Shown one piece after another: positions 1 to 30,264 of a stretch of 64,000 bases of DNA. The stretch is from a virus, in the IMG/VR virus record IMGVR_UViG_3300045988_056969, positions 46,751 through 110,750 of that record, one strand, 5' to 3'. The number at the start of each line of letters is the position of its first letter. Positions within the stretch are counted from its first letter, which is position 1. A program made the position numbers and the translations under genes. The notes below the pieces were generated by a model. It was not told the origin of the DNA. It worked only from the letters and a program-made list of their open reading frames with translations, and searched no databases.

Positions 1-308
1 TTACCATTTCTATATATCATAATTTAGCAAAATCTTCCTTGACTTTAGCTTTTATCTATTTTAATATGTTAAGATATTCCTTATATTCATTAATAACTTC
101 AGAATCAGAAGTAAGATTTTCTGAATAGCTATTATATGAATTGATTAAATCAAATTCTTCATCGACTGTAAGGAATCTTCTAACTATAGCTTTTACACAA
201 TCTTTGTAATTAGGCTGTCCATTTAATAATACCTAGATAAAACTATAGTAAGTTTTTTCTTTTATGGTATTGTCTAAATCAAGTACTTCAACACTAATTT
301 CTTTTATA

Positions 309-1589
309 TCATAGTTATAGTAATAAGTACCGTTCCCAAGTTTTTGGATTGTCTAAGGATAAACGTCCATTTGTATTCTATTCGGCTCTAACATAAGGTG
401 TTATTTTAAAATTTATAGGAAATTTGTATCTAAGCAAAGAATAGTGTAATCTCCTATTCTTACTTTTAAAATAGTAGGGTTTATTGTTATACATGAAATG
501 CACTCGAAAATGATTGTCATAATCAATAACCTCTACAATGTGAATATATTTATTATAAAACTTAGATATGTTAACTTCTTTTCCATTCCAGTTAGAGAAT
601 TTCAATCCAGTTAACTCCTCTACCTTTCTCAGCAAGTTCTTAGAGTTGCAAAATTTCATCCATCCAAAATAAGACCTCATTCTTCTATTCAATTCATCTT
701 TATCAATCTTATTCTATTTATATAGATTTATAAGCCTAAACATCCTCATTTTTATAGATTTTCTCAGTAGAACATGAGTATGATAGAATTTATAGCCTAC
801 GAAATTAATACCTCTGCTTTCTACAGGGAATATTTGATAATTAGGCTTCAACTCTAGGTTAAGAACCTGTTTCAAATATAGTTTTATAGATACTAATACA
901 TTTCTCAAATAATTCTTGTCATTACCAAGAATCACAATATCGTCAGCATATCGAAAGTAGTACTTACATTTTAACTCCTCTTTTACCCAGTGGTCAAAAT
1001 ATGTCAGATATAAATTTGCAAAGAATTGTGATAGATAATTTCCAATAGGAACTCCCTTCGCTGAATAAATTATTTCTTTCAACAGTTTTAATAGTTTTTT
1101 ATCCTTTATCTTTCTCTATAACATTTCGTATAAAATGTCGTGAGTTATAGAAGGATAGAATTTTTTTATATCCATTTTCAAGCAATACTTTGTTTCTTCT
1201 GGATGTTTCTATAACACCTTAAACAAATCATACTCTACTTTATGAATACCTCTATTTCGTATAGAGGAATATGTTTGGTCTATAAATATACTAGTCCAAA
1301 TAGGCTCCATAATATTCATTATAGCATGGTGAGTTATTCTATCTGGATAGTATGGAAGTCTAAAGATTAATCTTTCTTTAGGTTCGTATATTATAAAGGT
1401 ACTATATTCAGAGGTTTGATAAATCAAATCCCTTAACTTATCGGATAATTCCTTATTTTCTTTTAATCTATTCTTATCATGCTGCTTGATTCCACATCTA
1501 ATAGACTTATTTCTTCTGGCTTTATCGTCAGCTAGTTCGATGTTATCTTCAGCGTATACTTTCTCGTGCAAATATCCTACACGTTTCAA
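309..1589 (-). CDS. DGR reverse transcriptase; single gene requiring read-through of 4 in-frame TAG codons; real stop TGA at 309-311; start codon uncertain (TTG at 1587-1589)
   Basis: ORF-track fragments 1209-1589, 714-1082 and 378-692 share one frame and are separated only by TAG (plus-strand cta at 1209-1211, 1116-1118, 714-716, 378-380). RT motifs YPDRITHHAIM, FYPSITHDIL, PIGNYLSQFFANLYL (DGR-type I/LGxxxSQ), YADD. Lies next to a TR/VR pair. Confidence 0.8.
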
Positions 1590-1731
1590 TTTTTTATATA
1601 TTTCATCGGAAGCGTTCGAGAATTAACCTACTAACACCCTTCATTCAACACTACGTTATCTTTTGCCTAGAGGCAAGGATATTACTTAGCAAACTAAAAA
1701 AAATAATAAAATGTTTCTAAATATATAATAA

Positions 1732-1827
1732 CTTGACATTGGAATTGGCATTGCTGACGTCATTGTTAGAATTGAAATAGCTGAGACCTGCATTGCTGCC
1801 ATTATTCGCGTTGCTGCCTACTAGCAG
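1732..1827. repeat. DGR template repeat (TR), about 96 bp, non-coding, between RT and target gene
   Basis: Near-identical to 1932-2027 and (as reverse complement) to 29286-29375. Almost all differences fall where TR carries A in the coding sense. Confidence 0.8.
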
Positions 1828-1905
1828 TACTTTTTTGCCAATCAACGGTTTTTAGAAGTAATATCCTACGATTTATCATCTAAATCGATTTTTATATTGT
1901 ATATC

Positions 1906-3723
1906 TTAAGATACTCTATTCAGAGTCCTGAACCCGACATAGGAACCGGCATTGCCGACGCCAGCGCCAGAATAGAAATAGCCGAGACCCGCAAAGCCGC
2001 CATCATTCGCGCCGCCGCCCACCCGCAGCGTGCGAAGCGCTGTGCTGCTTGCGTTGCAGTAATGGTAATCGCAAATATAAGTAGTAGTACTTCCTCCAAC
2101 AGCGGATGGAATTATTTCAGCGGTTTCACCTAAGTCAAATGCCTTAATATAACCATCCGATGCTACTTCGTATCCTGCAACGGTTTTCTCTCCAACTACG
2201 TCTGTAAATTCCGATATGTTAGTAGTTGTATAGACAGTGCTAATCTCATTAGCAGCTGCTCTCACTACAACTACTCCGTCCAGGTTAGTCCAAATGTCTC
2301 CAAACGGATTATCGAATCCTCTCCAGCGAGGTACTTTAAATGTATGAGTTGCTACTGTATTTGTGCCATCTTGAGCTGTACATTCTGGAATAACTAAATC
2401 TTTTACTCCAGTGAAGTTACCAAGTTCATTGCAGTAACCACAAGGTGTAAGTGGATATGTTGCATTATACCCTAACCAACTTGTAGCTGCGTTAGCCCAA
2501 TCTGTAACTCCAGATCCTAAACCTCCTTGATGATATCCATCTGCAATTAACTCTGCATTATATGCAGCCTAAGAATTAAAATTAGCATATTCAATGACAT
2601 AATTCCAGTAGAATATCCATTTGTAATATTCATAGCATAGCAATTCTGAACCAGCATTTGTTGCATATGTTCTCATAGTAGCTCTAGAAATATTAGTTCT
2701 AGGCTTTCCTAAATCACTTCTGAATATATCCTTAGTTTCTAATTCTGTAGTTAGATAATCATCGTAGTTAGCTCTATTTCCTCCACCTCTAAATGCAGTA
2801 GTAGTATTAACTACTGATACAGCTTTTGGAGTTGCGGAGACTGTGGTATCAACTGTACTTCTGTATGCATCTATTAATAGTTCAGGAATTTCTACCCATG
2901 AATCATCAATTTTGACAGTAGAAGTTCTAACCCATCTTTTGTTTCCATCGCTGCCAGATTTTCCATAAAATTTAGGAGTATTAACTCTTACTGTTCCATC
3001 AGTTCCATCTAAGACAGATGGAGTTTCGCCGTCTTCTTTATAAGACCAGTCATCTGGAAACAGATAGTAATTTACTACATCATTGTTTGCTACACAACCT
3101 CTATACGCTGACTGAATAGGAAGAGATTTATGCAACAAAGGATTACCTATTCTAGTAAGTTCCGGAGATGCTACTGTAACATCCCATTCTACTCCATAGG
3201 AATATAAATCCATATTACTATTTAGCTCAGTAACCTACTTATCAAGCTTTTGTTGTGCCTTCTACAATTCTTCCCAAGCCTCATTTAGTGCTGTAAATTG
3301 CTCTTCTAGCTTAGAACTTGAATCTGCCCATTCAGCAGTACCATCTGCTGAGAAAACTAGCATCTATCCAGACGCTCCTCCAGATGGAATATGTTTATTT
3401 CCAGAAGTAGTTGGGTGTACATAATTATTAGCATTATTAGCTATAGTACTTAACTTTTCCTTCTCAGTTTCAGTATAATTGGCTTCAGAAAGTCCCTTTC
3501 CTAACTCCTTATCTACTTTGCCTTCAAGCTCACCCTTAGTAGCTAATTCACTAATATCCTAATGCTCAGTCAAATATCCACTATCATTCTGTAACTAAGA
3601 AGTTTTAGTTGGAATTGCATTAGCTTTGGCATATGTCGTATCTATAACATTTCCAGCACCATCGTAAGTAGCTTTTAAATCGTATGTGGTTTCCCCAACC
3701 TTTATAGATTTGATTGCTGCCAT
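1906..3723 (-). CDS. DGR target protein 1 (tail-fibre/receptor-binding-like, about 605 aa) with C-terminal VR; contains in-frame TAG codons; stop TAA at 1906-1908
   Basis: Frame-0 fragments 1906-2265 and 2569-3213 are joined by TAG (e.g. 2569-2571, 3235-3237, 3262-3264, 3364-3366). ATG at 3721-3723 lies just after an upstream in-frame TAA TAA (3733-3738). N-terminus MAAIKSIKVGETTYDL; Gly/Ala-rich C-terminus covers VR1. Confidence 0.65.
1932..2027. repeat. DGR variable repeat 1 (VR1) in the 3' end of a minus-strand target gene
   Basis: Alignment to TR gives about 25 substitutions, 24 at plus-strand T of TR (coding-sense A to N); one a-to-c change near the end. Confidence 0.8.
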
Positions 3724-3732
3724 ATCATTGTA

Positions 3733-6700
3733 TTATTAAAGTTTCACCAACTACATCGTGATCTATTCTCTCTATGGAAGCAGTTAGGTCCTCAACAGCC
3801 TTCTACAATTCTGCTTTAGTAGCATAGTTCTTGAGAACTTCCTAGTCTACTCCAGAGCCTCCTCCTATACTTCCTCCAACAACTTTTACTGGTTTGGCAG
3901 AACTCTTAAACTGTCCTTCAATATAAATTGTTCCCATATTGTTTAAAATATTAATTGTTCATTTTCTCCATCTACCTCTACACTAGAACCTGGCTATAAA
4001 GCGTCTATCTTTTTCTACAATTCGGCTACGGCCTAGCTAATTAGTTCTTCTACCTCAGCTTTGGTGTAGTATCTCTCTATAAGATATTCGCTCCTAACAT
4101 ATCCAGTATCTTGTAAATCTTTTTCTCCATAGGTGCAATAATAAGTATCTTCTTCAGTCTTACTATTCTCAACTAGGTCATCATAATCAGCTTGTGGTAA
4201 GCATACAAGTTTTGGTACTTCTTCAGTAATAGCAACTTGCTTGCCTCCAGCAAATAGCCTGTTATCTTCTGTGGTAAGTTTAACAGAACTCTCAATAACT
4301 TGCTCAGTTCCTGTTTCCTCAGAAGGTTCTCCAGTTGTTCCCTATTGTACTTCTTTTTCTCCAATTTTCTAAATAGTAATATCAGAAGTTTCTACTGATG
4401 TAGATTTCAAAAGCTCAGTGCTAAATTCTTTAGCAGCAGCAGCCTAATCATCCTGATATTTTTTCTAGGTAACAAATATGAAATCATCATCTCCGGTTTC
4501 AGGAGAGTCTCCCCTTAAACTTTCTTTTGTTACGTAATCTTCGGCTATCTAATCTGATAAATTAGATAATGACTATTGAGTAGCATAAGTAGACTGAGCA
4601 TTTTCCTTAGTAAGAAATTTGTCATCAACCTGCTAAATAGTATAATAAGCCTTAATATCTTCTGTAGTAACGTAGTTTCCAAGTTTTTGCAAACCTTGAA
4701 CTATTTCATCAATCTACTTCTTGGAGTAATAATTTGTAGCAACCCAGGACTGATATTGATTAGTAGTATGATAATTCTAATCCAAATATTCCTTAGTAAT
4801 ATAAACCTTTGCATCATTTGTAACGTCATATACATAGTAATATGTATCAGGCTCTACCGTCCCTTCCTCTACTAACTTTAGATACTCTTCTTCAGTTAAT
4901 GTTACTAAGTTCGGAATATCCGATTCAGTAGCAATCTAATCTTCACCTATAAATAATCCTTCAGACTTAACGTCTACTACTAACTAGCCCTCTCCCTCCA
5001 CTACAGGAGATTTTATCTACCCAACAGTGATGCTTTCTAAGGAGCCATCTCCATCTACCTTAAGAGTTTTATCTAACTCGTCTTGGATAGCCTACTAATC
5101 TTCCTCATATTCTTTCTTTGTAACGAAGACAAAATCATCTCCTTCCATTCCCTCTCCTCTAAGGCTTTCTTTAGTAACGAAAATATCGTTTGTTTCTTCC
5201 TTAGTATAATACTTAGTCAGTGATAGAGCTAAAGAATCGTTAGAGACATAATTAGTAGTTAATTCTTCCAGTGTAGCATAATCTGATAGGCTAGCAATAG
5301 TGTTATCTAAGTCTGTTCTAATCTATACTACAGTAGTATTAAGAGCCTTCTATTTTAATTGCTCTTCTATCTTTTTCCCCCATTCCGCGGATAGGTAAAA
5401 CTAGTTATCGTCTAAGCTATCCTCATATATATAATAATATGTCTCAGCATGAAGATATGGTTTACTTTCATCTATGGGCCTAAAATCGTCTGTAGTATTC
5501 TCAGACCATTCTTTATATTCAGCCTCTGTACAGGTGATTATCTAGATAGATTCATAGGATGCTTTCCATCCTTCCTTGTATTTAATCTTAGACTTATCAA
5601 TCAGCATATAAATATTTCCGTTATCTATGTTAGCAACGGTCATACCTTGATAAGCATACTTCTCTGGAATAGAATAAAGTTCGTCTAAGTTATTAACGAC
5701 TGTTCTATTATCGAGAGGCTTCGGAGTTTCTACGGTTAAAGCGACACCTAAGGTAGCATCACCTGTATATTTAAATGCCATTATTGTGATAGAATAAAGT
5801 TAATTTGATGTGGCAATGCTGAGGAGTAAGTATCTTTCTTAGTCCATACCTTGTAAGTAAATCCATTTATCTACTCGGTAGACGTTTCCCAACCACTTAG
5901 GTCTACATTTAAATATCCAAGTCCTCCATCTACGGTAAATGAATTTAACTATGTGTTACTTCCTGGCAATTTTATAATAGCCTTACCACTTAGTGAAAAT
6001 GTGATAGTTCCAGACGATTGTCCAAAAGGAACTAGCGCCTATTTAATCACACCATCAGTATTACCAGAATACCAAGGATATGTGGCTACTACCTAAGCGG
6101 TAGCGGAAATAGAACCAGCTTCTACTCTCTTATCTGTAACTTCTCCTTTATTATTTATCAAATATTCTCCAGCGGCATAACTCACTGTACCAGAGTGAGT
6201 ATAAGTACCAATAGAATTATATGTATCAGACTCTACAGGAGAACTGTTATAAGTAATAGTTTCTCGTCTGTCAGTTTCTTCTCCAGCATCATTCTTTATA
6301 AATGTAAGTGTAGGAGTTAATAAAGCAGTTCCCACTTCTACTATTTGAGAAGTAAAACTATAATAAAGCTATGGGTATACTAAATCTCTAACTACTGTTG
6401 GAAACAGTAAAGTATCAATAATTTCATTAAAGGGCTTGCCCTTAAGTTTCTCTACTGTAGTCCCTTCAATTACTGTTGAAGTAGTATCATCTGGGAGTTC
6501 CGTCTAATAAGTAGCTATAGTTTCTAAGTTAGTTTGTATATTAGTAATACTTTCAGTATTAGCTTCTACTTTAGTATTTGTCTCTTGTTGTGCTTCCTAA
6601 GTTTTCTATACTTCTTTCTTTGTTTCTTCTAGAGCAGGTTCAAGATTCTTAACATAGATACCTGGAAGGATAATAGAAGAGGTTTCCTCTCCAATCTCCT

Positions 6701-9700
6701 ATTCTATTAAATGAATAGCATTATCTTCCTAAGTAGATAAAATCACCTCTAAGGAATTATTTTCCTTTAGTTCTATAGTTTTGGAATTTTGGAGACTATT
6801 CTTAATCCAATTAAGAATGTTTTTATCAACATCTATATTCTCAATAGCATTGTTCAACTCAACTATAGCTTCATTGATTTTTACTATTTCTTCAGATAGA
6901 TTATTAATTCCTTTTCTATTAGTATCAATTTCTCGCTGTAAATCCTCCTTCAATACAGATATAGAAGTTCTAATATTGCTTATATCGACTTTCAGTTCTT
7001 CTATTGCTTCTGTATTAGATTCATATTCGCTAATAAAGTATAGGGCATAGTCTAGGGCATCCTTCACAGTATTAATGCCTTCTGCAACGTCACTAGTATA
7101 GGTCCATTTTTGTTCTATATACTATACTAGGTCTTTTTGCAGTTCTATGGTTCCACTAATGTTTCCCCACAATAGACTCTACTCATCAGCAATACCTAAG
7201 TTCTTTCTTACTTTAGCTTTTTCTAGTTCTGTCCTATATTCTCCTAAATAGTTATTTCTTAAGAGAGGTATAGGCTCACATTTTATAGGCTTACCCTTTT
7301 TACCACAAGGCACTATATCTGCGTTACTTACCGAAGTGTAAATAGACTGTATCATTCTAGTTTAATAATTGCTATTTAATAAATTCGTGATTATCTAGTC
7401 TTACAGGTAGGTTAATAAAACAAATTAGATTAAGAATATCTTGATAATCTGGTTTATATCCCTTTTTGAGTTTTCTTAGAAAATCCTCATACCTTTTAAT
7501 AGCCTTTCTCTTAAGAGCATCCACAACCTATACGTTTATGTCCATGGTAGTGATTGTCACAGAATCCTCCACAGGTACGGAACATCGCTAGTAATCTTTC
7601 AGCCTCCATGAATTGTTTAAAGCATATTAAATAATCTATAATGTTAAGAGTCATCCATATAAAATCTCGAGCAAATATATCTGCTTCCTAATCTCTAGTT
7701 AGACACTTATTTAGTAAAGCATCAAAGAGTTTCTTACAATAATTAATGTAACACTACTACAAGTTTCCTGTAAAGAAAACATCTACCTTACATTTTTTTA
7801 TAGTAGTTCCTTCTATGTTTCGTTCAAGAACTTCTTTAACTGTACACTCTTCTAGCTTACCTTCTACTTCTTTATATAATTTTTCTCCATCAGTAACATA
7901 GATAGTCTCATAGTATTCCTTGTATTCGTCCGATGAATTTTCATACCATTTCATATTAGGAATAATGATATGGTCTACTACGTAATAACCATCATCCTTG
8001 ACCTTAAACATACACGAGTCTAAGTCTTCTGTATGGTCATTAAGTAGGACATCTATCAGAGTAGCATCGCTTATACTAACTTTGATGATAGTATTCAAGG
8101 TAGCACTCTCACTATACTTATAGGAGTCGTAAGAAGTTACTACCTCTACATCTTCATCAATATACTAGCCATATTCTTTTGAGAAATCTTCTATCAGTAT
8201 TTCCCCATTAATTTGGGTATGTATATCAATACTAAATTCCATATTGCAATAATATTAAGTGTTAGGCCATTGACCGTATTGAGCTGGTGTAGAAAAAGGT
8301 CCCCACTTTCCAGATTGCTTTATACGTCTAGACATAAAAACAGAAGTAAAAGATAAACTAATATCTTGTGGATAGTCAGTCCAGGTATAAGACTATCCAT
8401 CTGGAGTAGGAGGTAATTTATCAATCCCAGAGGAGGGCTGTCCATTCCAGTAGTAGTTATAGTCATAGGCTTTAATAGAGGTTACTTCTGTGGTTTCTCT
8501 CCCGTCAGAATCTATATAGAGAGGATCTCCTTTTTCATTCGTTTTTTGTTTATACTCTATAACTGGTGTTATTCCCTCGGTTCTAGTATATATAGTCTAT
8601 ATAATAGTAGAGACATCACTCGCTACTATTTCATAGATAGTAGTTCCCTATGATTCATCAGCTCCCTAAAAAGTAAATTTAGTTCTTTTCCATATATATG
8701 GATTCTCTTCTGTTGGAAGCTCAAAAGTATCAGACCACTACTTACTTGATAGTTTTATTTCAGATTCATCGGCAGTATTAGCAGGGAGATAATGTATTTT
8801 AATAATAATACTATTAACTGCTTCACTTGAACCGGATAAATCTGATACCTACTTAAATAATTTTTTTAAGTCGTCTTCTACATTTGATTTAGAACCGGAA
8901 GCATTACTTATAATTACTGTCCCATCAGAGATAGGATAAATCTACTACTAATCTTTGTTGTATACAATTGTTCCAGTTGCCATATTAATGTATTTGTCTT
9001 ATTTTGTCATTATATGGATTTCCATCATGAAGCTAAGCCAACTCTATTTCAGTTCTTTTTTCTTCAATATCCATTTGTCTATCTTTATAAGTAGAATCAG
9101 ACTGAGCTTTAAGCCAGTTAACTTTATATTCTAACTGCATCTTCTACTATTCTAATCCCAGTCTCTATTCATCTAAGCTTTCAATCTTTTGCTGAGCTTT
9201 CTATAATTCTTGCTGTAACTACTAAGCCTATTGAGAGGTTTCTTCTAATTTTTCTTGTAGTTGCTGAAGCTGATTATTTTCCTCTTTGCGAACTTGAACA
9301 GCTTTCTTAACCTTATATTTAAGGTCTGTCAGACTCTTAGATGTAAGAGCCTCAAAAATAATATCTGGATCCATCTGTTGACTTTTTACGAACTCTGGAA
9401 TGATTGCTTTTATAGTCTATAGATCTTCCATCACTTCTGAACTAGCAGTAATATGAATATCGTAGTCAGTAACAGTAAAATACTCAGGAAGTGCTGTAAA
9501 TATCTGTTGATATTTATCCCCAAGTATAATAGTTCCAGTTAATCCTTTCTTATAAGTAACTTTAGCCTAATTAAGACTATCTAGTAGTATCTCGCAGGTT
9601 ATTAAATCCATCTGCTAAAAATAGTGCTTAGTTACTATATACGAGTTAGCTACTCCCTACTTAATATTAGTAACTGCATCTCTAGTTTCTATACCGTTAA

Positions 9701-11347
9701 GTCGTTCCCTAAATACTCCAGTTATTGATGATGTAGTTTGTTCTACTGATTGAATAGCTAATTCAATAGCCTATACAGCCTATGCTTTTAAGGTATCATC
9801 AAATCCGTTATATATCTAGTTTGGAGCTTGCTGTCCGTCATTCCTACCTTCTTGGCTTGAGTCTATCCACATGATACCACCTTTTTTATAAGCTAACCAT
9901 TTTTGTACTCGTTCTGGCCATTTAACTCCTAAGTTGGTAGGCAACAGAGACATATCCATAATAACTCCAGCAGTACCACTATTAGCTATTAGATTATCTC
10001 TATAATAGTTTAATAAGTCGTATCTATCCTACAGATGTGCACATTTTAATATAAGAGAATAAGGCTACTAAGAGCGATTTAAGAAATATACTCCATTTAC
10101 CGATAAAGAACAGAAGTTGGGATTATCTTTAGACCTCATAACAGTCTTGTCTAATCCTCTAAGAATATATATCTCTTCTCCTATTCTGATAGTATTGTAT
10201 CTCTACATCACAAAATCATCATCTGTTTCAATCCATTCAACATCATAGACTGGGATTAACTAGAACCTATGAGCACTATATTCATTGTCTGGATAGCCGG
10301 GAATGGTTTCATGATTCTAATCTTCATTTACTACTGTACAAGTATCTCCATATACTCTTCTATAAACAGCAGCTGAATCATCAGCTCGCCATTCATCTTT
10401 TAGTCTTCTTAAATCTTCTCTAGATATTTCTTTGCCATATTTAGCTAAAATCTAACTCTTACTCATCCACTTTCTTACTACAACTCTATATGAGTTCCTT
10501 ACATATGGAGATTCTGGATTTCTATCAACAAATGTATTAAGTGGGTTTAATACCTCTATTTCAATATTAGTTCCAGAAGCCGATGATTTCACTCTAAAGA
10601 ATGTATAACCAGTAATTAATAAGTCTGTTAGTAACTAACGTAACTTAGTAATTAAATCGGTTTCTCTGGATTGCATAATATAATGTACTATATTCTAAGC
10701 TGCAATTTCATATTGAGAAATAAAGGATTGGTCAATATCCTATATAATTTTATCTAACTAAGTCTTTACAGCTTTATCAGTAATATCCTTGCCATCAATA
10801 AACTTAAGAATTGAATTACTTAAATGGTCTTTCAAAAACTTTACTATTCCCTTGGTTATTTCTAGCTATTTTTCTCTTGTTATATTACTGATAGTATCTG
10901 AATCTTTGCAAGAAATTTTCGGAAGTATAGGAGTTCCTAAATATTCTCCAACTAGAGCATCTACGTGTTTCTTTAATAAAGGCGTAAACTCTACCGAAGT
11001 GGGGCTACCTATTCCGAAGTTTTCTTCCAGATAACGGAACTATTCAGGATCTCTTTTACCATTATAATAATTATAAGCTTTCTGTAACTCATACTTATCA
11101 TATACAAGTTCCGCAATAGCCTCGTTTGTCTTGTCTATCAATTCCTTCTCTTTCATAACATAAATTATGTTGTTCTGGAGGAAGTTTAGTAGCGTTATAA
11201 TACTTAACTCTTTGTAACTTCCTACTTCTTAATTCTTCCTTAATAAATGGCAGAAATTCTTCGTCTGGTAAATCTGCTATTATTACTAATGGCATTTCTG
11301 ACCTATCAAAGTTAAAAGAGACTTTATACCCAACTGGGTCTAAACTC
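3733..11347 (-). other. Late virion-structural gene block on the minus strand; genes fragmented by very frequent in-frame TAG; includes coiled-coil fibre-like fragments and a portal-like C-terminal region near 9.0-9.96 kb
   Basis: Only short same-strand ORF fragments (4173-4364, 5542-5781, 6093-6335, 6729-7067, 7757-8098) and none of 60 aa or more between 8.1 and 11.1 kb. Manual translation of 9003-9960 with TAG=Q gives a continuous protein with a portal-like Gln-rich coiled-coil C-terminus. Confidence 0.45.
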
Positions 11348-13711
11348 TCAATATCTAGTCCGCCTATATACTCCATTTTGTACAAGTCCCTCATATATTC
11401 TAGGATCACTTGTTTCAACTCTGTATGGGTCATCATATTCGTTTCTTTGCATATTAAGTTCAGGAGTTTTCTTAGTTGGAATAACTCCAAATCTTTTAAT
11501 TCCTCTCTCGTCGTAATAGTAACCAAAATCTTGGAACTATTCAACTTCTTTCTCCACAAGTACGGGCTGTCTTCCTGATAGCTCTTGGTCTGCTAACTCA
11601 GTCATACCTACAGCGGCTACAATATCATACTTACCCTTATTTTCATCATTATATGCAGTGAACTATTCTAGCATTTCTTCGAACCATATAGTATGGCAAT
11701 AGTCTTCTATAAAGGCGGCTGTTAAATCAGTATGCTATTCGATTATAGTTTTTGTAGCAGGAGTTCCATACTATTTAGTAGTTCCATTTCTAACGTCAGT
11801 TAGAGTAGCTCTTGGGCGCTTCATAAAATAGTTAAGGCATCCTTTTTCTCTAGCCCAAGTAACCATACCCATACGAGTAGCTTCTATATTTATTTTACAA
11901 TTATAATAGCGAGCTAAACACATAGCTATTTTATAGGCTTCTCTGATGTCTCCAGGTCTATCCTTGTACATAGCAACATACTGAGGGTCATTCATACCAA
12001 ACGCACGTTTCTTAATCATTATGCAGAAATCAGACGGGTCTCTGGTTTCCTTAGAAGTCTAATTCGCTCCAATATCAATACCGTCTATACCTGCTACATA
12101 TAAGTCTCGCATCTCTTTATAAACTGGAACTTCAAAATCCTAGCCATTATCTTCTGCCTCCTATCTAAGCTTTTCCATTTGTTCTTTATATAAGTCAGAC
12201 CATATTGGATGCTCTAGAATTTTTACTTTGCCATTGCTGTTAGGAATCCATTTAAAACCATCAATATTATCCTAAGTATGTTTATTATTTTTGTAAAAAT
12301 AATCAATATAACCACATTCGGGTCTTGGGCCAATTTGTTTAAGTCTTATATTAGCTATCTATTCGGCAACTAAAATTTTATTAAACTTATTAACACCTTC
12401 TAGATTAAATGCTTCTTCTGCATTCCAACAACGTTCAGCGCATTTCTTTAGGTAGTCTTCTGGTACAGCTAACAGATTATCTCGCTCCTCCTATAAGAAT
12501 TTCTTATATTCCACAGTATTACATACTCCTCTGTGGTCCATAAATTCTGGATTCAAAGATTGTATAAAGTATGGAATAAAGAATCCACTCTCTATAGTAG
12601 TCCCATCCTAAGTCCAATTATGTCTAAATGGAAGAATCTTATATGCTCTTGGATTATAGTAAATCTTTTTTAAGCCCTCTAGAGGAGCACCCATATCACC
12701 GCCAGTACCTCCAAACAACATTGTTCCACGAGGCATACCTTGAACTTCACAAAGTTCTTGACCTTGTACCACAGCGGTATCAAGTCCAGGCCAGGAACCA
12801 GCTTCATCATATATTAATAAATCTACACGGTCTCCACGAATATTAGATGGTTTAGCTCCGTTAATTGCTACAACCTCAGATTTAAATCCTACGTCTTCAA
12901 ACTAACCATTTATTTTGATTTGTTTACCTGATTTCTTTCTCAAATCCTGGTCAATAAGTCGCAATTTAAAAAATCCTCCTCCAGTACAGGTATTTAAGAA
13001 TGTAAGAGCATTATCAAACTTACTAAAGGTACCCTTAAGGAAGGTATCATTAAAGCAAGTAATCATAACCCTACTTCTTCTAATAACAGAGTACATACGA
13101 GCAGAAAGAGAGGCGTTTATTTCAGAGAATCCAATAGAACGAGCTTTCATTAAAGCTGCGTGCTTGTGTAGCACTCTAGCCATCTATAGATAATGAAAGA
13201 ACATATAATGTGATGCAAAGAATATTGGGAAGTCATTATCAGTACCCTCACCAGAGGCTTTCTGCTAGTCAATAGTAGGTAACTAATAGAAATTTAAGAA
13301 GAAGTAATTATCTCCAGTAATGGTGTATCCATTAACTGTCATTCCATACTTACATCTTCTATATTGCTCTTTCCAAAATTCGTTGTACCGCTTACTATCT
13401 CTAAGGTAGGGACAGTATTGACCAGTTCGTTTATATACTTCCCTAGTCTCGGTAAACCAATCTGGATTAAAGTCCAATCCATGAGTTTCGTCAATAGGTC
13501 TGTATCCAGTTATTTCATAAGATAAGGTAGGGTCAAATACTTCTATTTTATCTCCTATTTTAACATCCCAATAGTCAGAATTTCTGACCCTTTCCTCTCT
13601 TATTTTCTATACTAATTCTCTAGCTTCTTTAGCATCCTCTTTCTATTCTTTTTCTCTTACCTAATCTACAATATTCTATATTTCTTCAGGTAATATCTTT
13701 TTTCTTGGCAT
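11348..13711 (-). CDS. terL: Terminase large subunit (787 codons) with about 25 in-frame TAG codons; stop TGA at 11348-11350
   Basis: Same-frame fragments 11771-12019, 12902-13183 and 13283-13477 are joined by TAG. Walker-B-like VDLLIYDEAGSW; nuclease motif YVAGIDGIDIGAN...DPSDFC; length typical of TerL. Confidence 0.75.
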
Positions 13712-15823
13712 AATTAAAAGTCTCCTGGGTCAAAACCATCCACAGCTCCAGCTCTAACAGTAGATTGTTCAGTAAGTTCTTTCTTAACCTAGTCTTCTAG
13801 TGTTATGAGTTCTTCATGAACTTTGTGAAGAGTAGCCATTTCCTTCATTACTTTTTCAGCCTGGAATACTGGCTTGCCGTTATTATCACGCTCATTTAAA
13901 TCTACAATAGTTTCGAAATAATCAATAAACTAGTCTGCAGCTCTTTTAGCTGCTTCTAGTAATTTTATTGACTTGTTTGAATCTTGTAACGCTCTGTATT
14001 TCCTACAAGCTTCTCTAAATATAGGGTCATTAAATTCTGACTCTGTCAATCCAGAATCACTAATAGCTTCGTCATGTCGTTCATGTTCCGAATACTAACT
14101 GTACGGACTTTTCCAGTCTATAGCTAAATAAATGTAAGATAGTTCTCTAGTAGCTCTATCCTTTTCTGCAGATTTATCCCTCTAGATTAAAGCCTTAAAT
14201 TCCTTAACTAGTAATATCTCTGGTTCATTTATTTCTAGCTATTTAGTTAAAGTGTTATAGTTAAATACATTCATAATCATTAATCATTATCATACACATT
14301 AGATAATCTTATTATTTCTTTTTCATTTTGGAACCGCACTTATTGACTTTCATTTTTGAGCCACAAGCGTCTTTCTTAGCATATTGTTTTCTGTCAGGAA
14401 CCCATTTTCCTCCCTGGAAATTACCCTTATGTCCTTTATTGGCCATAGTTTCCTAATCATTGTATTTATTGATTGATATAGAATCTCTTGAGGCTTCGTC
14501 TCTAGCAGATTTCATATCTTTCTTATACTAAGCTCTTCCTGCCTTAAATTTATCAACTTCATTAGCTTTCTTAGTAACTTTAGTTCCTTTTTGTGCTTTC
14601 TGGCAAGCTTTACAGATTCTACCGCCTTGCTTAAAATATACAAGCTCTTCTCCTTCTGGACATACTCCTTTTAGCTTCTTATAATACTCAAGCTTAGCTC
14701 CAAGCCTAGCCATTACTCCTCCTTGCATTTTCTGCATAAATTCCTGATACTTAGCTTTAATGCCGTCTTCACCTAATTGTTCAGCATAAGCTTGTAAATC
14801 CTGTTCAGACTATATCTGAACTCCCTATGACTGCGCATCCTATATTAAATATGCCACAAACGCTTTTTGTAATTCTTGTTGATTATTCATTGTTCCTCCT
14901 TGTTGAAATTTAGTTGTATGTCCCGGAGATAATGTTAATGGTTTAGCTTCTGATTTTCTAGAATTCCATACATCTCCAAGATAATTAAATAATCTCTATA
15001 ACCCCCTATGTATCCCAAAATCTCCTCCTTGTACTGTATTTCCCATAGTATATCTAATGGTAGAAGGTTGTTTAGGCTTACTTGAAGGCTACTCGGCTCT
15101 TGTCTATTCACTAGCTGGCTAACTGCCTCTTGTAATAGTTGGTATTCCTCTACCCCAAGTAGTTCCTTTTGTTGTAGCAATTAGGTCTGGAGCTTCTATA
15201 CTAATCTAAGTATCTGACTAAGGAATCTGAATGGTAGAAGGTTGTTTAGGCTTACTTGAAGGCTGTCCTAAGTCTGTAGTATATACAGAATTTCCCCACA
15301 TAAACTGTTTTAGTCCTCTCTCTCTAGCAGCCCTAAAAGCTGTCTTAAAATCTTTAACACCTCTTAAATCATCCTAAGCTATTTCAGCAGTAGGAAGAGG
15401 TTCTAATCTTGTGGGTAATGAAGGCATTTCTGGAGCATCAAAATATGCCTCTTGTAACTTAGGCATTTTCTATTGTGCGGTTCTTCTAATAATGTCTGGA
15501 TTAGTTGCCCAAGTCTAATGCAACTACCTCAAGGTTCTCTCATCTAAGTCCGCATCTCCGTAAATAATTTTGATATTACGCATCAATTCAGGGTCAAACT
15601 ACACTTTAGCCATTACTTTTCTACTTTAATTAAATCCTTAGTATTAAACACTGCTTCCTACATAAGTCCGGAATCAGTAAACCATCTACATCTTAATCCT
15701 CGTAATCCTTGGTTATCTTTAAATAAAGCTGCTTCTCTTCTTAGAACAAGCATAACTGGAGAATGCATTACTTTACACTACCGTAAAGTAACACAATCCC
15801 CAGGCTTAAAATAAACTTTTTCA
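13712..15823 (-). other. Additional late genes with in-frame TAG (fragments 14528-14737 zinc-ribbon CxxC..CxxC; 14935-15180)
   Basis: Short minus-strand ORF fragments in several frames; boundaries not resolved. Confidence 0.3.
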
Positions 15824-16426
15824 TCAATTGTTTCCATACTTCAATTCGTTTCTTCTTTCAGTTAGATTTTCGTTAACTACAGCCATAATTCTGTTCTCAT
15901 TAACTACAACAAATCCAAACTTGTAGAACGGAACCATGCACTCGCTAGCTATTGTATAGAATACTATATCTCCAGGTTTTAGGAACTCACACTTGTGCCC
16001 GACCTCAATAACAGTACCCACTTTAATAAATTGTTGTTCTTCTTCTATTTCTCCTGTTTCATTAGATTTATATGTTGGAGCAAATCCACCTAAGTCTGTA
16101 ATTAATCCACTCTTAGTAGTTTTAATTTTTTGAAACGGATTTTGTTCGAAAGGTTTAATTAATGCATACCCATACATAGGCATAATTTCTACACCATTCA
16201 TATCCTCAGATAATGATTTGGCGTAAGATTCTAAAGCTGCATTATGTTTAGAGAATTTATCTTCTAATTCATCTACTGCTGTATTGAATCTTTCCTGTTT
16301 TTCTCTTAATAAAGTTTTATCTGCAGCTTCTCCATTTACTATAAGGTGCTGTCCTGTACCTTCCATACCAGTTATAGCTAGTGCTAGTTTCTCATTACTG
16401 TTCAATTCTGTTCTTAAAGTTTCCAT
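15824..16426 (-). CDS. Hypothetical protein (200 aa), TGA stop
   Basis: Intact ORF in the track; no confident homology. Confidence 0.5.
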   Translation of the reverse strand: METLRTELNSNEKLALAITGMEGTGQHLIVNGEAADKTLLREKQERFNTAVDELEDKFSKHNAALESYAKSLSEDMNGVEIMPMYGYALIKPFEQNPFQKIKTTKSGLITDLGGFAPTYKSNETGEIEEEQQFIKVGTVIEVGHKCEFLKPGDIVFYTIASECMVPFYKFGFVVVNENRIMAVVNENLTERRNELKYGNN

Positions 16427-16434
16427 AATTCATT

Positions 16435-16773
16435 TTACCATTTACATAAATCACAATGTTCATCTTCTATTCTAGTTTTGTTCTCTAGTATACAACCACA
16501 CTCCTCACATACTTCTCCAAATGAAGTCTGTAATTTATGAGGACAAGTATTACAAATATTTAATCTTGTGGTTGCTAAATCTTGATTAATTCCAAATATA
16601 TGGAAATATATACTCTTCAATATTACTAAAGGTTTAGTAAATATTGCTTTAATCCATTTCTTTGACATCTTTTCAGTAGGTTCTTGAGTCATAAGTATAT
16701 AAGCCTTAGTAGGGTTAGCCATTACTGGAGTCCCATATAGTAATAAATTATTTACCATTTCTTCGCAGGACAA
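16435..16773 (-). CDS. Cys-rich small protein (CNTCPH..CEECGC..HCDLCKW), paralog of 16752-16967
   Basis: ORF track; shares its C-terminal Cys motifs with the neighbour; TAA stop. Confidence 0.5.
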   Translation of the reverse strand: MSCEEMVNNLLLYGTPVMANPTKAYILMTQEPTEKMSKKWIKAIFTKPLVILKSIYFHIFGINQDLATTRLNICNTCPHKLQTSFGEVCEECGCILENKTRIEDEHCDLCKW

Positions 16774-16967
16774 TGCTTCTTCTCATTAGGTATCTTTAAT
16801 TCCAGTAGACATCCGCATCCTTTTATATATCCTTCTTTTGGACCAATACTTATGTCATTGTTTTCTGGATTTAAATACAACTGTCCATTACATATTGCAT
16901 CTTCTTGATTACATATTGGACAGCGTCTACATATTTTCCATCTTTCTTCTATTTCCTCTAGTGTCAT
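16752..16967 (-). CDS. Cys-rich small protein (CRRCPICN..GCGC..HCPAKKW)
   Basis: ORF track; paralog of 16435-16773. Confidence 0.5.
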   Translation of the reverse strand: MTLEEIEERWKICRRCPICNQEDAICNGQLYLNPENNDISIGPKEGYIKGCGCLLELKIPNEKKHCPAKKW

Positions 16968-16969
16968 AA

Positions 16970-17884
16970 TTAATATTCAATACGTTGACGTTTCTTTTTA
17001 TTTTCTGCCAATATAGATTCTTTCTTGTAAAAAGAAAGCATTCTTATTACTTCATCTTTTAAATATGGTAAGTGATATACTGTCATGTTGTCACTGTGGT
17101 CGAAGTGTACTAAAACTAAGTCTTCAATTTCAAATTCTGGGTTTTTCTTCTGAATCATCCAGGCGTAAGTACTTAGCTGAAGGGTATAATGCCAATAATT
17201 AACATCATCTAAATTATTTAGAGGATACTTCATCTTAACTGATGTCTTAGTTTTAGAATTAAAGAAACTCTTTGTTTCTATTTTTTTATTAGTCTTCCAG
17301 TCGCCAATAATTATCTTATTACCTCTTTTAACTAATAAGTCAATTTGTCCAGCTATTCTTAGTTTTCCGTCCTCAGATACTCTAGAGATTAGATACTCAG
17401 GATATACCCCATTCTCCAAATCTAGATTGTTATAGTCTTTTATACACTCAAACTTACCACCTATTTGATATTTACTTAGATCTATATCCTTCTTCTTTTT
17501 GTAAAAAGAGTTTTCCAAATCTGCATGGATTCTAGTTCCTCTCTCGCAAGAGTTTCTGTTCTCCATATCCCATGCATCTAAGATAGCTTGTTGTTCTTTA
17601 TTAAACTCGTCTTCTGTAATGTTATGAAGTTCAAGTAGAACTTTGTCAAATTTCTTAGTATTCAGCAGAGATTTTTTCTCGATAGCCCAATCTTCTTTAG
17701 GTAGAAGTTTCTCTAGTGCTTTATAAGCTGACCAGAACTCTTTATCAAAGGGTTGGGTGAAAGAATGAATTAAAGTCGTTACAGATATAAATTTCTGTTC
17801 TGGCTTTGTAACATCATAATAAATATGAGCTTCCTCTTCGAAAGCTATGTTCCCATTTTGTTTTGTAATTTTACTTTTGTCCAT
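16970..17884 (-). CDS. PD-(D/E)XK family exonuclease (RecB/Cas4-like fold)
   Basis: Motifs GQIDLL...GDWKT (D..E/D.K) and TLQLSTYAW (QxxxY); intact ORF, TAA stop. Confidence 0.6.
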   Translation of the reverse strand: MDKSKITKQNGNIAFEEEAHIYYDVTKPEQKFISVTTLIHSFTQPFDKEFWSAYKALEKLLPKEDWAIEKKSLLNTKKFDKVLLELHNITEDEFNKEQQAILDAWDMENRNSCERGTRIHADLENSFYKKKKDIDLSKYQIGGKFECIKDYNNLDLENGVYPEYLISRVSEDGKLRIAGQIDLLVKRGNKIIIGDWKTNKKIETKSFFNSKTKTSVKMKYPLNNLDDVNYWHYTLQLSTYAWMIQKKNPEFEIEDLVLVHFDHSDNMTVYHLPYLKDEVIRMLSFYKKESILAENKKKRQRIEY

Positions 17885-20287: not shown

Positions 20288-20304
20288 AACTATTAATTTT
20301 GGCG

Positions 20305-20376
20305 TTGCCCTACTAGGATTCGAACCCAGACTAAATGATTTAGAGTCATCTGTGCTGACCATTACACCATAGGGCA
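20305..20376 (-). tRNA. Suppressor tRNA, anticodon CTA (reads UAG); clean cloverleaf; probably Gln-derived
   Basis: Minus-strand TGCCCTA-T-G-GTGT-AATGGTCA-GCAC-A-GATGA-CTCTAAA-TCATT-TAGT-CTGGG-TTCGAAT-CCTAG-TAGGGCA-A. All stems pair. The D-arm is identical to the tRNA-Gln(TTG)-like gene at 34198. Confidence 0.8.
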
Positions 20377-20514: not shown

Positions 20515-20916
20515 TCATACATAAGCTTTCAGTTGTTCAATTCTCTTTTTAGCTATATCTGACAATGCCATTTTGAATTTAGCAATACCAGCTCTTACTG
20601 TTTCTAACTTGCCGCTTTCTAAGCATTCTTGTATTTTATGAACTTCAAGCTCTCCTAGATATTCGCATACATCTATAAATAAATCATCATCTAGAGATTC
20701 TAAATATTTCTGGAATTGGTCTACCTCTTCATTAGCTAGACAGCTTTCTTCCTTCTATCTTTCATAAGATATTAATAAGAACAAAGAATCGTCGGTAGAT
20801 TCGGACTTAATAGTTAGTCCATTACCAGACATATAATATTCTTGATTCGTATTAATTGCCCCAATTAGCTATTTAAACTAGTCCTAATTTAACAATGTTT
20901 CTAAGTCTGTAATCAT
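20515..20916 (-). CDS. Hypothetical protein (133 aa) with 4 in-frame TAG; stop TGA 20515-20517
   Basis: Manual translation MITDLETLLN-Q-D-Q-FK-Q-LIG...; continuous only with TAG as sense. Confidence 0.45.
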
Positions 20917-23343: not shown

Positions 23344-23413
23344 TCCCTACTAGTATAATGGATTGCGTCTCCCTTTAAAGGAGAAGATTCTGGTTCAAGT
23401 CCAGAGTAGGGAT
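23344..23413 (+). tRNA. tRNA with anticodon TTA (UUA; would read UAA, and UAG by wobble); ochre-suppressor-like
   Basis: TCCCTAC/GTAGGGA acceptor; anticodon arm TCTCC-CTTTAAA-GGAGA; T-arm TCTGG-TTCAAGT-CCAGA. Confidence 0.6.
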
Positions 23414-23448
23414 CTTCATAGTTATATTATTTGTGATTATTACTTTTC

Positions 23449-25591: not shown

Positions 25592-25663
25592 CTTTCCTTA
25601 GTTCAATGGATAGAACCTCTGTCTTCTAAACAGATAATTCCAGTTCGAATCTGGAAGGAAAGA
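25592..25663 (+). tRNA. tRNA-Arg (anticodon TCT)
   Basis: CTTTCCT/AGGAAAG acceptor; D GTTC/GAAC; anticodon arm TCTGT-CTTCTAA-ACAGA; T-arm TCCAG-TTCGAAT-CTGGA. Confidence 0.75.
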
Positions 25664-25670
25664 CTATTAT

Positions 25671-25742
25671 TCTCCCCTTAGCTCAACGGTAGAGCTTTCG
25701 ACTTTTAATCGAAAGACAAGAGTTCGACTCTCTTAGGGAGAA
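25671..25742 (+). tRNA. tRNA-Lys (anticodon TTT)
   Basis: D GCTC/GAGC; anticodon arm TTCGA-CTTTTAA-TCGAA; T-loop TTCGACT; encoded CCA. Confidence 0.7.
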
Positions 25743-25763
25743 CCAACTTTAAATAATTAAGCT

Positions 25764-26137
25764 ATGATAAATGTAGACGAATTAAGAAACAAAAAGTAGC
25801 TCGGAGAAATAGGAGAGCGTATAGCCATTGGTGAATTATCAAAATATGGATTAGATATTTTATTACCAATGTCTGACAATCTACCATTTGATTTTGTTAT
25901 AATAACAAGTTTTACAGAACTTAGGTGAAAACTACTGCGAGTAAAACTGTAAATAACTCGTTGAACTTTAGTTTAACAAGTAATAATTATAACAAAGGGA
26001 CCGTTCACAAATACAACGAGGATGAAATAGATATTATGATATGTTGCGACCTTCATAACATCTATATATTTCCAGAATGTGATGTTGCTAATAGAAATTC
26101 TATTACTATTAGGGAGGAACCTCCAGCTAATAATTAG
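25764..26137 (+). pseudogene. YraN/UPF0102-like PD-(D/E)xK endonuclease paralog, apparently frameshifted; carries TAG at the motif-III position
   Basis: 25764-25927 gives MINVDELRNKK-Q-LGEIGERIAIGELSKYGLDILLP...FDFVIITSF, then TGA. A different frame (25925-26137) continues RT-Q-VKTTASKT..., parallel to the 27326-27727 protein. Confidence 0.4.
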
Positions 26138-26284
26138 ACAAAAGGTATAAACTTTGCAAAAGATTGCATCATATCTATAGAAAGATTAAATTATACTTTC
26201 TCTAAGATAGAGAAATAATTCCCTATTAATAGGGAAGTCTTTTATTCCGCTAGTAAACATTTGTTGTGAAACACGTGTTTGCAT

Positions 26285-26357
26285 CTGGGTATAGTCGAGT
26301 TGGTAAGATGCTACATTTGGGATGTAGAGACCGCAGGTTCGAGTCCTGCTATCCAGA
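26285..26357 (+). tRNA. tRNA-Pro (anticodon TGG); D-stem irregular
   Basis: CTGGGTA/TATCCAG acceptor; anticodon arm CTACA-TTTGGGA-TGTAG; T-arm GCAGG-TTCGAGT-CCTGC. Confidence 0.6.
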
Positions 26358-26569
26358 CAAGAAGTAATCAACATTCACTATTAGTACAGCAATTAGGACT
26401 GTAGGGTGCCTTTTAGATGAATCCCCGATTACTCCAATTAACAGAGGTGAGTTCCCTTAAAATTGTTACCACGCACTAGTGCGGCTATTAGCTACTAGAG
26501 GACTTGGGGTGCCAAGAGGAAGAATTGTAGTAGCTATGTTAATTAGAACAAATCTGTTAATTGCTTTAT

Positions 26570-26653
26570 GGGATAGCGCCAACGATGGAGAGTTGGGACG
26601 GACTGTAAATCCGTTGCCTTTAGGCTTAGTAGGTTCGAATCCTACCTATCCCA
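26570..26653 (+). tRNA. tRNA-Tyr (anticodon GTA), long variable arm
   Basis: GGGATAG/CTATCCC acceptor; anticodon arm ACGGA-CTGTAAA-TCCGT; 14-nt variable arm; T-arm GTAGG-TTCGAAT-CCTAC. Confidence 0.75.
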
Positions 26654-26680
26654 CAATTATGTAAAATAACTTACCAAAAG

Positions 26681-27052
26681 ATGATAAGAATTTCTAGAAT
26701 TGTAGCTAAGGATAGAATAGCAGATTTGCTAGACTTGAATTTCGTATCTAAGATAACTCTTAGACAAGGTAGACAAGGATTCAAAAATCCTGCAATTTGC
26801 AGAGTGGAAATCTATCTCCAAGTAGATAATGATACAGAATACTTTAATAGTGTTATGAGTAACATTGTTGACTGGGGAAAGGAGCGTAATTGTAATATTG
26901 CTGTTACCACAGCAAATATGGCTCTACATGATGGATTTATTAAAGAGTCTGCATTTGATGACTTTGATTATCCTATGCCAAAAAAGTATAAGGACTTATG
27001 CAGCGTATATTCTGACGAATATTTTAGACTATTTAATAGGAGAAAGATATAA
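26681..27052 (+). CDS. Hypothetical protein
   Basis: ORF track. Confidence 0.45.
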   Translation: MIRISRIVAKDRIADLLDLNFVSKITLRQGRQGFKNPAICRVEIYLQVDNDTEYFNSVMSNIVDWGKERNCNIAVTTANMALHDGFIKESAFDDFDYPMPKKYKDLCSVYSDEYFRLFNRRKI

Positions 27053-27265
27053 TGGAAGACAAATATGAAGGGCTATCTGATGAAGAACTCAAAGAAATCT
27101 TCGAAGATATGCAGGCAGACTATTGGATAGATTATTATCAATCTATCTATGAATAAAACCCTATTAGCGAGACCTAGGATATGGATTTTAGAAATATGTA
27201 TACCCACTGCATATAGGTTAGTCATATTTAAATGAGGAAACCAGGGTTCTCTACTAGGTCGATTC

Positions 27266-27300
27266 GGGATTGTAACCGGTAATTGGTAGCCGCGCAGATT
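27266..27300 (+). tRNA. 5' half (exon 1) of a split type-II tRNA: acceptor GGGATTG, D-arm, 5' strand of the anticodon stem GCAGA
   Basis: Pairs perfectly with the 3' half at 27826-27872 (acceptor 7/7 bp, anticodon stem GCAGA/TCTGC). Confidence 0.5.
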
Positions 27301-27325
27301 AAACTAATAATTAAAAATTAAATTT

Positions 27326-27727: not shown

Positions 27728-27733
27728 TAAGAG

Positions 27734-27817: not shown

Positions 27818-27825
27818 CTACTAAT

Positions 27826-28358: not shown

Positions 28359-28359
28359 A

Positions 28360-28827: not shown

Positions 28828-28834
28828 TTTGATG

Positions 28835-28908: not shown

Positions 28909-28938
28909 CAAACCATGTTTTATTAAATATTATAACAA

Positions 28939-29499
28939 ATGAAAAGAACTATTGAAATTGAATGTCCAGATGGTTATAAACCCATCTATAATGCCGAAAC
29001 TGGCAATGTTGAAATCGTTCCAGAAAACATTATGGGACGAATAAAGACCTATGAGGACGCTAGAGACTATCTTGGGTACTTATTTAATAGTGAAATCCAT
29101 TACACTGAATCTGTAAAGGCTCTAGCTAAGTTGCAAACAATTCTGGATGCGCTGAACGAAAAGCACAAGTTCAATCTGCTGACTGGTACTATATGGTATC
29201 CCTGGGTTCGCTTCTTTAGAATGAAATCAGTTCCGAAGGATGCAGAAGTCATTGGTCACTTCCGTTATCAGGGCGAGAAATTCGCGTTGGTGGGCGGCGA
29301 CGCGGCTATTGGCGGCACTGCGGGTCTCGGCTGTTTCTGTTCTGCCTTTGGCGTCGGCTTTGCCTATTCCAATGTTGGGATGCTTGCGTGCAAATCTGAA
29401 GAGATTGCCAAATACGTATCAACCCAGTTTGGAAAGCTAGTGTTCGATGCTTGTTTTGCAAGACATTTCAAGGGTGAAGAATTTGAATGGCTTGACTAA
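28939..29499 (+). CDS. DGR target protein 2 (186 aa) with VR2 at codons about 116-146 (FALVGGDAAIGGTAGLGCFCSAFGVGFAYSNVGM)
   Basis: 29286-29375 matches the reverse complement of TR with about 25 differences, all at TR adenines in the coding sense. Confidence 0.75.
   Translation: MKRTIEIECPDGYKPIYNAETGNVEIVPENIMGRIKTYEDARDYLGYLFNSEIHYTESVKALAKLQTILDALNEKHKFNLLTGTIWYPWVRFFRMKSVPKDAEVIGHFRYQGEKFALVGGDAAIGGTAGLGCFCSAFGVGFAYSNVGMLACKSEEIAKYVSTQFGKLVFDACFARHFKGEEFEWLD
29286..29375. repeat. DGR variable repeat 2 (VR2), about 27 kb from TR
   Basis: See the alignment against the reverse complement of TR 1732-1825. Confidence 0.75.
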
Positions 29500-30162: not shown

Positions 30163-30167
30163 CAAAT

Positions 30168-30241: not shown

Positions 30242-30264
30242 CTATTTAATTAATAAATTAGATT

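Follow-up and report, generated by a model that had tools for sequence, protein, structure and literature searches.

A 64,000-nt stretch of a viral genome of approximately 185 kb (IMG/VR record IMGVR_UViG_3300045988_056969, positions 46,751 to 110,750), referred to throughout as the window, contains close to its left end a diversity-generating retroelement (DGR) whose reverse transcriptase (RT) gene holds four in-frame TAG codons. We consider it highly probable that this is an active DGR with two targets and no Avd, carried by a Zeta-type crAss-like gut phage of ~185 kb whose late genes use TAG as a glutamine codon, and that the TAGs in the RT are ordinary recoded glutamine codons. The core observation, a DGR with an amber-containing RT in this phage group, is already published (PMC12386605). 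Two themes already in print, recoding of late genes and DGRs with two targets, come together in this locus, which leaves the understanding of how DGRs or recoding work unchanged.

Anatomy of a two-target retroelement

The genes of the locus all lie on the minus strand, and TAG was kept in frame for translation. Read along that strand, a 605-aa gene is followed by a gap of 78 nt, the template repeat (TR), a spacer and the RT gene, while a second variable repeat (VR) lies elsewhere in the window:

3723..1906, minus strand: DGR target 1, a tail protein of 605 aa whose gene holds six in-frame TAGs and ends in TAA (PHROG 5302, tail protein, 6e-85)
2028..1932, minus strand: VR1, found by repeat search at a 201-nt offset from the TR, with 76% identity
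1827..1731, minus strand: TR, 97 nt long, 31 of them adenine when read in the coding sense, found by repeat search and near-identical in 18 relatives
1730..1590, minus strand: non-coding spacer of 141 nt between TR and RT, a candidate 'Sp' region of the DGR RNA, with sequence blocks conserved in recoded and standard-code lineages
1589..315, minus strand: DGR RT gene, 424 aa, with a TTG start, a TAA stop at 317-315 and four in-frame TAGs
29284..29380 (core 29288-29375), plus strand: VR2, at a distance of 27 kb from the minus-strand cassette
28939..29499, plus strand: DGR target 2, an open reading frame (ORF) of 186 aa without TAG (PHROG 11581, of unknown function), in the standard-code tRNA/early block

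The RT matched the Pfam family RVT_1 (9.7e-20) and the RT family PHROG 1423 (4.6e-113), and carries the motifs IGNYLSQ (residues 182-188) and YADD (residues 214-217). Its best match among solved structures, 8ub7_A (E 1e-45), has the sequence of BPP-1 Brt, to which the window RT is 35% identical over residues 48-329. The next PDB matches, to retron-type and group II intron RTs at ~1e-16, are about 30 orders of magnitude weaker. By sequence, the enzyme is thus placed in the DGR clade, in agreement with a first-pass annotation of the same DNA that had called it a DGR-type RT from its I/LGxxxSQ and YADD motifs. The start codon is TTG; standard-code relatives have an in-frame TAA two codons upstream of it. 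At the other end, the protein continues for ~95 residues past the end of Brt, an extension for which we found no Pfam family and no PDB sequence match. DGR RTs are without an RNase H domain. An RNase H gene is present at 46097-46558 (plus strand, standard code), and its product could in principle process RNA-cDNA hybrids, while an ordinary replication function is more likely.

Compared in the coding sense, TR and VR1 have 24 mismatches over 97 positions, of which 23 lie at TR adenines and one is a T>G change (hypergeometric P 1.5e-14). Taken over 100 nt, the comparison gives 26 mismatches, 24 at A, so that an earlier description of a 96-bp TR with about 25 differences, 24 at adenines, was right within the uncertainty of the repeat boundaries. 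Translated in the VR frame, the TR reads LLVGSNANNGSNAGLSYFNSNNDVSNANSNVK, with codons that are mostly AAY or AGC. An Asn-rich (AAY) TR is the usual design, and substitution of A at AAY codons cannot yield a stop. VR1 encodes residues about 566-597 of the tail protein, near its C-terminus, in agreement with the C-terminal VR described in the first pass. The C-terminal domain of this protein gave 0 matches in Pfam or PDB sequence searches; C-type-lectin models have been reported for the tail-fibre targets of Zeta crAss-like phages (PMC12386605).

VR2, to which the first-pass annotation had only alluded, was located by a pattern search with the TR adenines wild-carded. Its 88-nt core has 23 mismatches to the TR, and 23 of 23 fall at TR adenines (P = 5e-16). 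The 186-aa ORF that contains it sits between tRNA-His and a membrane-protein gene, and the two targets resemble each other solely within the VR. The VR2 protein had no match in Pfam or PDB sequence searches, while 830 homologues were retrieved. Two Bacteroides phages, Versailles and LoVEphage, encode homologous proteins of ~193 aa in their replication/recombination regions. The Versailles homologue (33% identical) lies among NinB, recombination and replisome genes and bears a remote VR that matches the TR of that phage itself, apart from 15 A-substitutions and one T>G; that of LoVEphage is encoded two genes downstream of a DNA methyltransferase. On this evidence the two-target design recurs in unrelated Bacteroidales phages. 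It is also reminiscent of a recent report of four Bacteroidota prophage species with a DGR that has a second, distal VR near counter-defence genes (Nature 2025; PMC12629997). There, too, a long distance separates the RT cassette from the second VR, which occupies a small gene surrounded by DNA-metabolism or counter-defence genes. Those phages are temperate prophages that use the standard code, whereas the phage studied here is a large TAG-recoded crAss-like phage with its second target in a tRNA array.

Sequence diversification among relatives

A protein-guided scan of IMG/VR yielded 478 relatives of the RT, and 80 loci were kept for analysis; a megablast search of window positions 1-12000 against GenBank phages gave no match. 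VR variation is described here as differences between assembled genomes, as distinct from reads within one sample. The 19 genomes whose TR lies within 2 nt of the one in the window have 19 distinct VR1 sequences, in which 25 of the 30 TR-adenine columns are variable as against 8 of 67 other columns (Fisher P 1e-11). For VR2, 36 distinct sequences were found in 37 related loci, and all adenine columns vary (30/30). The alignment of 28 homologues of the VR2 protein is near-invariant outside the VR codons, following the pattern LVGGxAxxGGxAGLGxFxSxxGVGxAxSxVG. VRs differ even between genomes with RTs that are 96-98% identical, and in sister DGRs from genomes with the standard code the VRs likewise depart from the TR almost only at A. 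The first-pass expectation of VR polymorphism restricted to TR adenines held almost entirely between assembled relatives. A near-invariant TR, combined with VRs that are different in almost every genome and almost only at TR adenines, shows that the element is active and that both targets are being diversified in nature. Anatomy, the adenine-specific differences of VR1 and VR2 from the TR, and this variation among relatives together show that the complete DGR reported at first pass is genuine.

Following the BPP-1 paradigm, the RT would copy the TR-spacer RNA into cDNA, with random bases incorporated opposite template adenines, and the cDNA would then replace VR1 within the neighbouring gene for the tail protein as well as VR2 within the distant 186-aa gene; we infer these steps of cDNA synthesis and homing from that paradigm. 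The resemblance to the BPP-1 DGR (mtd-avd-TR-brt) extends from the RT and the adenine-specific TR/VR differences to the position of the VR, at the C-terminus of a receptor-binding tail protein, and to a TR lying upstream of the RT across a spacer. BPP-1 differs in being a temperate Bordetella phage rather than a crAss-like one. In the window, moreover, no Avd was found, the RT has its extra C-terminal residues and requires read-through of TAG, there are two targets, and the initiation of mutagenic homing (IMH) site is not clearly GC-rich.

Candidate RNA and homing signals were sought around the repeats. In the spacer, the blocks CCUUGCC-ucuw-GGCAA and GGGUGUUAGUAGGUU..UCUCGAA are near-invariant between lineages with RTs only 70% identical, and the two ends hold complementary AU boxes (1728-1719 and 1603-1594). 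RNAalifold on the spacer gave conserved blocks with a single covarying pair, so a structure is not established, and an Rfam scan of the window returned tRNAs only. As for transcription signals, crAss-like phages rely on RNA polymerases of their own, and the promoters of Bacteroidota do not resemble those of sigma-70. The last six letters of each of the 56 VRs are GTCGGG, matching GTCGAG in the TR (GTCAAG in this window), and that A of the TR never varies. This points to an IMH-like boundary. Just beyond VR1 lies a further element:

1913..1926, minus strand: hairpin ACTCT-GAAT-AGAGT, starting 6 nt past VR1, with a stem that is kept in relatives and a loop of GAAT or AAAT

A TCTGAAKAGA core is common to the hairpins after VR1 and VR2, and is not strictly conserved after VR2. 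The hairpin after VR1 is a possible target-recognition hairpin.

TAG recoding of the reverse transcriptase and late genes

The four TAGs that the first-pass annotation had listed in the RT are at codons 127, 158, 292 and 404 (1211-1209, 1118-1116, 716-714 and 380-378). The first of them is upstream of the catalytic motifs, so the enzyme does depend on UAG read-through as was proposed. The gene is embedded in a region with the same property, and a matching suppressor tRNA is encoded nearby:

1..15837, minus strand: TAG-recoded late block (tail genes, DGR, portal, TerL), with 1-4 TAG per 100 aa and 38-67% of Gln codons being TAG
20304..20376, minus strand: suppressor tRNA with anticodon CUA (reads UAG), Gln-like, tRNA match of 66 bits

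Every minus-strand gene of 1-15837 contains in-frame TAGs, for instance portal (8985-11156, 28 TAGs) and TerL (11348-13711, 19 TAGs), which were assigned, like the tail genes, through PHROGs. The first 16 kb are scarcely covered by ORFs under the standard code, and reading through TAG restores long ORFs: in the 6 kb upstream of the RT, coverage by ORFs of at least 150 aa rises from 0.22 to 0.87. Full-length RT is possible only with UAG suppression, as is true of the whole late block. The plus-strand block at 21-64 kb, which holds the tRNA array, RNase H, a DnaB-like helicase, a Toprim primase and membrane proteins, has almost no TAG. On the minus strand, a sharp code boundary is seen at about 15830, with no TAG in the next four genes (15824-17884), which encode a GroES-like protein, two zinc-ribbon ORFs and a PD-(D/E)XK exonuclease.

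The 80 related loci fall into two groups with respect to TAG. In 32 of them (86-98% RT identity; mostly 100-190 kb, many near 185 kb) the RT frame is kept through 3-10 TAGs, and the flanking sequence also needs read-through (ORF coverage 0.2 as against 0.88). The other 48 (~70% RT identity) have no TAG in the RT, apart from one each in two loci, and their flanks use the standard code. The number of TAGs in the RT thus tracks whether the genome is recoded. On the question of whether RT homologues read through at TAG positions, raised with the first-pass annotation, the frame is maintained across the TAGs in the recoded group, and TAG-free RTs belong to standard-code genomes.

We read TAG as glutamine in the late genes because the TAG columns align with Gln in standard-code homologues. 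Position 188 of the RT alignment has 66 Gln and 15 TAG, position 252 has 71 Gln and 9 TAG, and TAG and Gln exchange likewise at positions 105, 36 and 58. The first of these positions corresponds to the Q of the defining SQ motif, so that 15 loci read IGNYLS-TAG-FFAN. Within the window, tRNA-CUA is most similar to the phage's own tRNA-Gln(UUG), with 71% identity and a near-identical D-arm. The 27-mer of its anticodon arm occurs in 32 IMG/VR contigs, and was found with 28 of the 32 TAG-containing RTs and with none of the 48 TAG-free ones. For crAss-like phages, proteomics has proven that TAG in late genes is translated as Gln (PMC9523058).

These observations bear on whether the RT might instead be a decaying pseudogene cut by real stops, with the TR/VR differences as relics of past activity. 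The standard code does split the gene, into fragments of 126, 122 and 104 aa. We regard decay as extremely improbable, since the 32 relatives conserve both the frame and the protein sequence through the TAGs, TAG stands for Gln at conserved positions, the neighbouring essential genes portal and TerL carry 19-28 TAGs, the RT has neither frameshifts nor TAA or TGA interruptions, and, as described above, the VRs are different in genomes with nearly identical RTs.

TAG accounts for 4 of the 10 Gln codons of the RT (0.40), for 6 of 13 in target 1 and, over the remaining late-block genes, for 121 of 238 (binomial P for RT 0.54), with shares of 0.38-0.67 in the other late genes. As the share in the RT is no higher than in its neighbours, the TAGs are not special to the RT, contrary to the emphasis of the first-pass annotation, and represent ordinary late-block codon usage. 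A recent acquisition of RT and target, which a seemingly lower TAG density than in the neighbours had raised, was rejected: per Gln codon the usage is the same.

Full-length RT, like the portal, terminase and tail proteins, can be produced only when tRNA-CUA(Gln) is present to compete with release factor 1. According to a proposal by Borges et al., late genes are translated with a delay owing to their recoded stop codons, and those authors applied the same logic to a recoded homing endonuclease (bioRxiv 10.1101/2021.08.26.457843). Suppression, and hence RT synthesis, would on this model be restricted to late infection. Diversification confined to the late stage is then probably a by-product of the place of the RT in the recoded late block, as an application of the published Borges/Peters model. 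The locus shares with the code-15 phages described in those studies (Borges et al.; PMC9523058) an arrangement in which structural and packaging genes form one recoded unit while replication genes use the standard code, along with a phage-encoded tRNA-CUA and TAG aligned with Gln. DGRs and RTs are not mentioned by Borges et al. or Peters et al. (PMC9523058), whereas here the enzyme of a retroelement is recoded.

A stronger version of this idea is a dedicated timing gate, in which the TAGs of the RT have been selected to hold mutagenic retrohoming off until late, beyond the delay of other late genes. In its favour, the catalytic motifs come after the first TAG, which is codon 127 here and codon 36 in some relatives, so that an unsuppressed product is dead, the TAGs at codons 127 and 158 are common to most recoded relatives, and the homing endonuclease offers a precedent for the logic. 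We nonetheless think such a gate unlikely, given that the TAG share of the RT is not above that of its neighbours, that TAG positions vary between sub-lineages, and that sister RTs in standard-code genomes work without any TAG, with VRs that differ from the TR almost only at A.

A more speculative proposal, which we consider doubtful, links two ideas. The 186-aa early-block target might be a non-virion, intracellular or host-interaction factor, for example in counter-defence; with an RT made after the code switch, variants of both targets would arise late in one infection and be first expressed in the next. If true, the DGR would be diversifying an arms-race protein besides the receptor-binding protein in a crAss-like phage, and recoding would act as a temporal and a safety gate.

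The locus is of practical as well as biological value. RTs split by recoded stops escape standard DGR finders and gene callers, and DGRs in code-15 phages are therefore under-counted, a point made likewise in PMC12386605. Biologically, it offers a clean natural setting where no RT can be synthesised without the suppressor tRNA of the phage.

Accessory genes, phage affiliation and genomic context

Avd is a typical, though not universal, component of DGRs. No avd gene lies between target 1 and the TR, as the first-pass annotation had stated; the gap from the target stop codon to the TR is just 78 nt. Pfam searches of the flanking ORFs gave no 23S_rRNA_IVP/Avd family, and a phmmer search with BPP-1 Avd against the six frames of the 64-kb window had a best E of 2.1, with no Avd. 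Where an Avd-like ORF had been suggested, below position 309, there is indeed a conserved ORF, which overlaps the end of the RT gene and is not Avd-like:

370..17, minus strand: ORF117, a conserved acidic ORF of 117 aa with three in-frame TAGs, overlapping the 3' end of the RT gene by 56 nt

We considered whether ORF117 could be the missing accessory factor, as a functional replacement for Avd. It directly follows the RT in 80 of 80 loci and in cr7_1 (46% identity) and cr55_1 (26%) of the Suoliviridae, with different genes beyond it in those two phages, and its start, 10 nt past the fourth TAG of the RT, overlaps the RT end in a way that suggests translational coupling. Homologues in IAS virus and cr111_1, on the other hand, are found behind a tail-type gene with no RT annotated alongside. 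The protein has an isoelectric point of 4.7 as against 9.6 for Avd, and an AlphaFold2 (AF2) model, made from a 99%-identical database protein (pLDDT 63), predicts three strands plus three helices and not a four-helix bundle. There was no Pfam family and no fold match; the protein belongs to PHROG 11557, of unknown function. A role as an Avd substitute is thus improbable. Because ORF117 also follows tail genes in crAss-like phages without an adjacent annotated RT, we concluded that it is not Avd-like and that it belongs with the tail gene rather than with the DGR.

The ORF117 homologue of cr7_1 (5187-5552 of its locus, L119) is a single annotated CDS with two in-frame stops, one at the 'FI*V' position of a TAG in the window. 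This suggests that cr7_1 also reads through stops in this gene. In relatives of the window (for example L002, 7792-13272), the RT, ORF117 and a 73-aa ORF are followed, just past what would be the left edge of the window, by a giant TAG-recoded ORF of >1800 aa. It extends beyond the end of the locus and presumably encodes a large virion protein.

Among named phages, the RTs closest to this one belong to the Crassvirales phages cr7_1, LMMB and cr55_1 (52-58% identity). TerL matches in a phage collection were almost all crAss-like, mostly named Crassvirales at 27-29% identity, with two unannotated gut contigs at 43-44%. Relatives are ~185 kb and the GC content is 35.2%. Taken together with the GxxxSQ motif, the CTA suppressor and the combination of amber recoding with a DGR, these features match the Zeta crAss-like phages of PMC12386605. 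The presence of DGRs in Alpha, Delta and Zeta crAss-like phages was on record before (PMC11054128), and a 2025 study found them in 18 of 43 Zeta genomes (PMC12386605). The Zeta DGRs described in the latter agree with the present one in the order tail-fibre target, VR, TR and RT inside the structural block, in the GxxxSQ motif and amber codons of the RT with a CTA suppressor tRNA in the genome, and in having no AVD, save in Lera and ct1yV3. Their genomes are similar too, at about 176-189 kb with ~35% GC and 20-30 tRNAs. They differ in being described with one VR per TR, where the present phage has VR2 as well, far off in a small ORF of the early block, and in the length of the RT (the longest reported is 414 aa, as against 424 aa with read-through here).

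Several points weigh against the reading of this locus as an active two-target, Avd-free DGR in a recoded Zeta-type phage. The assignment to Zeta is made through indirect features, namely TerL identities of 27-29%, relatives of ~185 kb, 35% GC, the GxxxSQ motif and the combination of amber recoding with a DGR. The negative result for Avd covers 64 kb of a genome of ~185 kb, so that an Avd or a second RT could be encoded elsewhere. The IMH and hairpin elements are weakly defined, and a C-type-lectin fold of the targets has no sequence match, with an AF2 model of the VR2 protein (pLDDT 44) that is unusable. As regards late suppression, the tRNA-CUA gene is placed in between the early block and the late one, and an ORF of 133 aa with four TAGs (20916..20515) is situated upstream of it on the same strand.

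This candidate ORF (20515-20916, minus strand) is acidic, lies outside the main recoded block and had no PHROG match. Other features of the tRNA-rich region include a tRNA with anticodon UUA at 23344-23414 (plus strand, Rfam 57 bits), which is ochre-suppressor-like, yet TAA is the normal stop in the genes examined. A set of ~20 tRNA genes interspersed with small ORFs extends over 25592-43312 (plus strand). One of them, tRNA-Tyr at 27736-27872, has an Rfam match of 137 nt as against 85 nt with ARAGORN, and may contain an intron. The TAG-free block also encodes envelope-type proteins on the plus strand (30265-32983 and 46954-47970): a lipoprotein-like ORF, a membrane ORF, a 652-aa SPFH/Band 7 protein and an OmpA-family beta-barrel.

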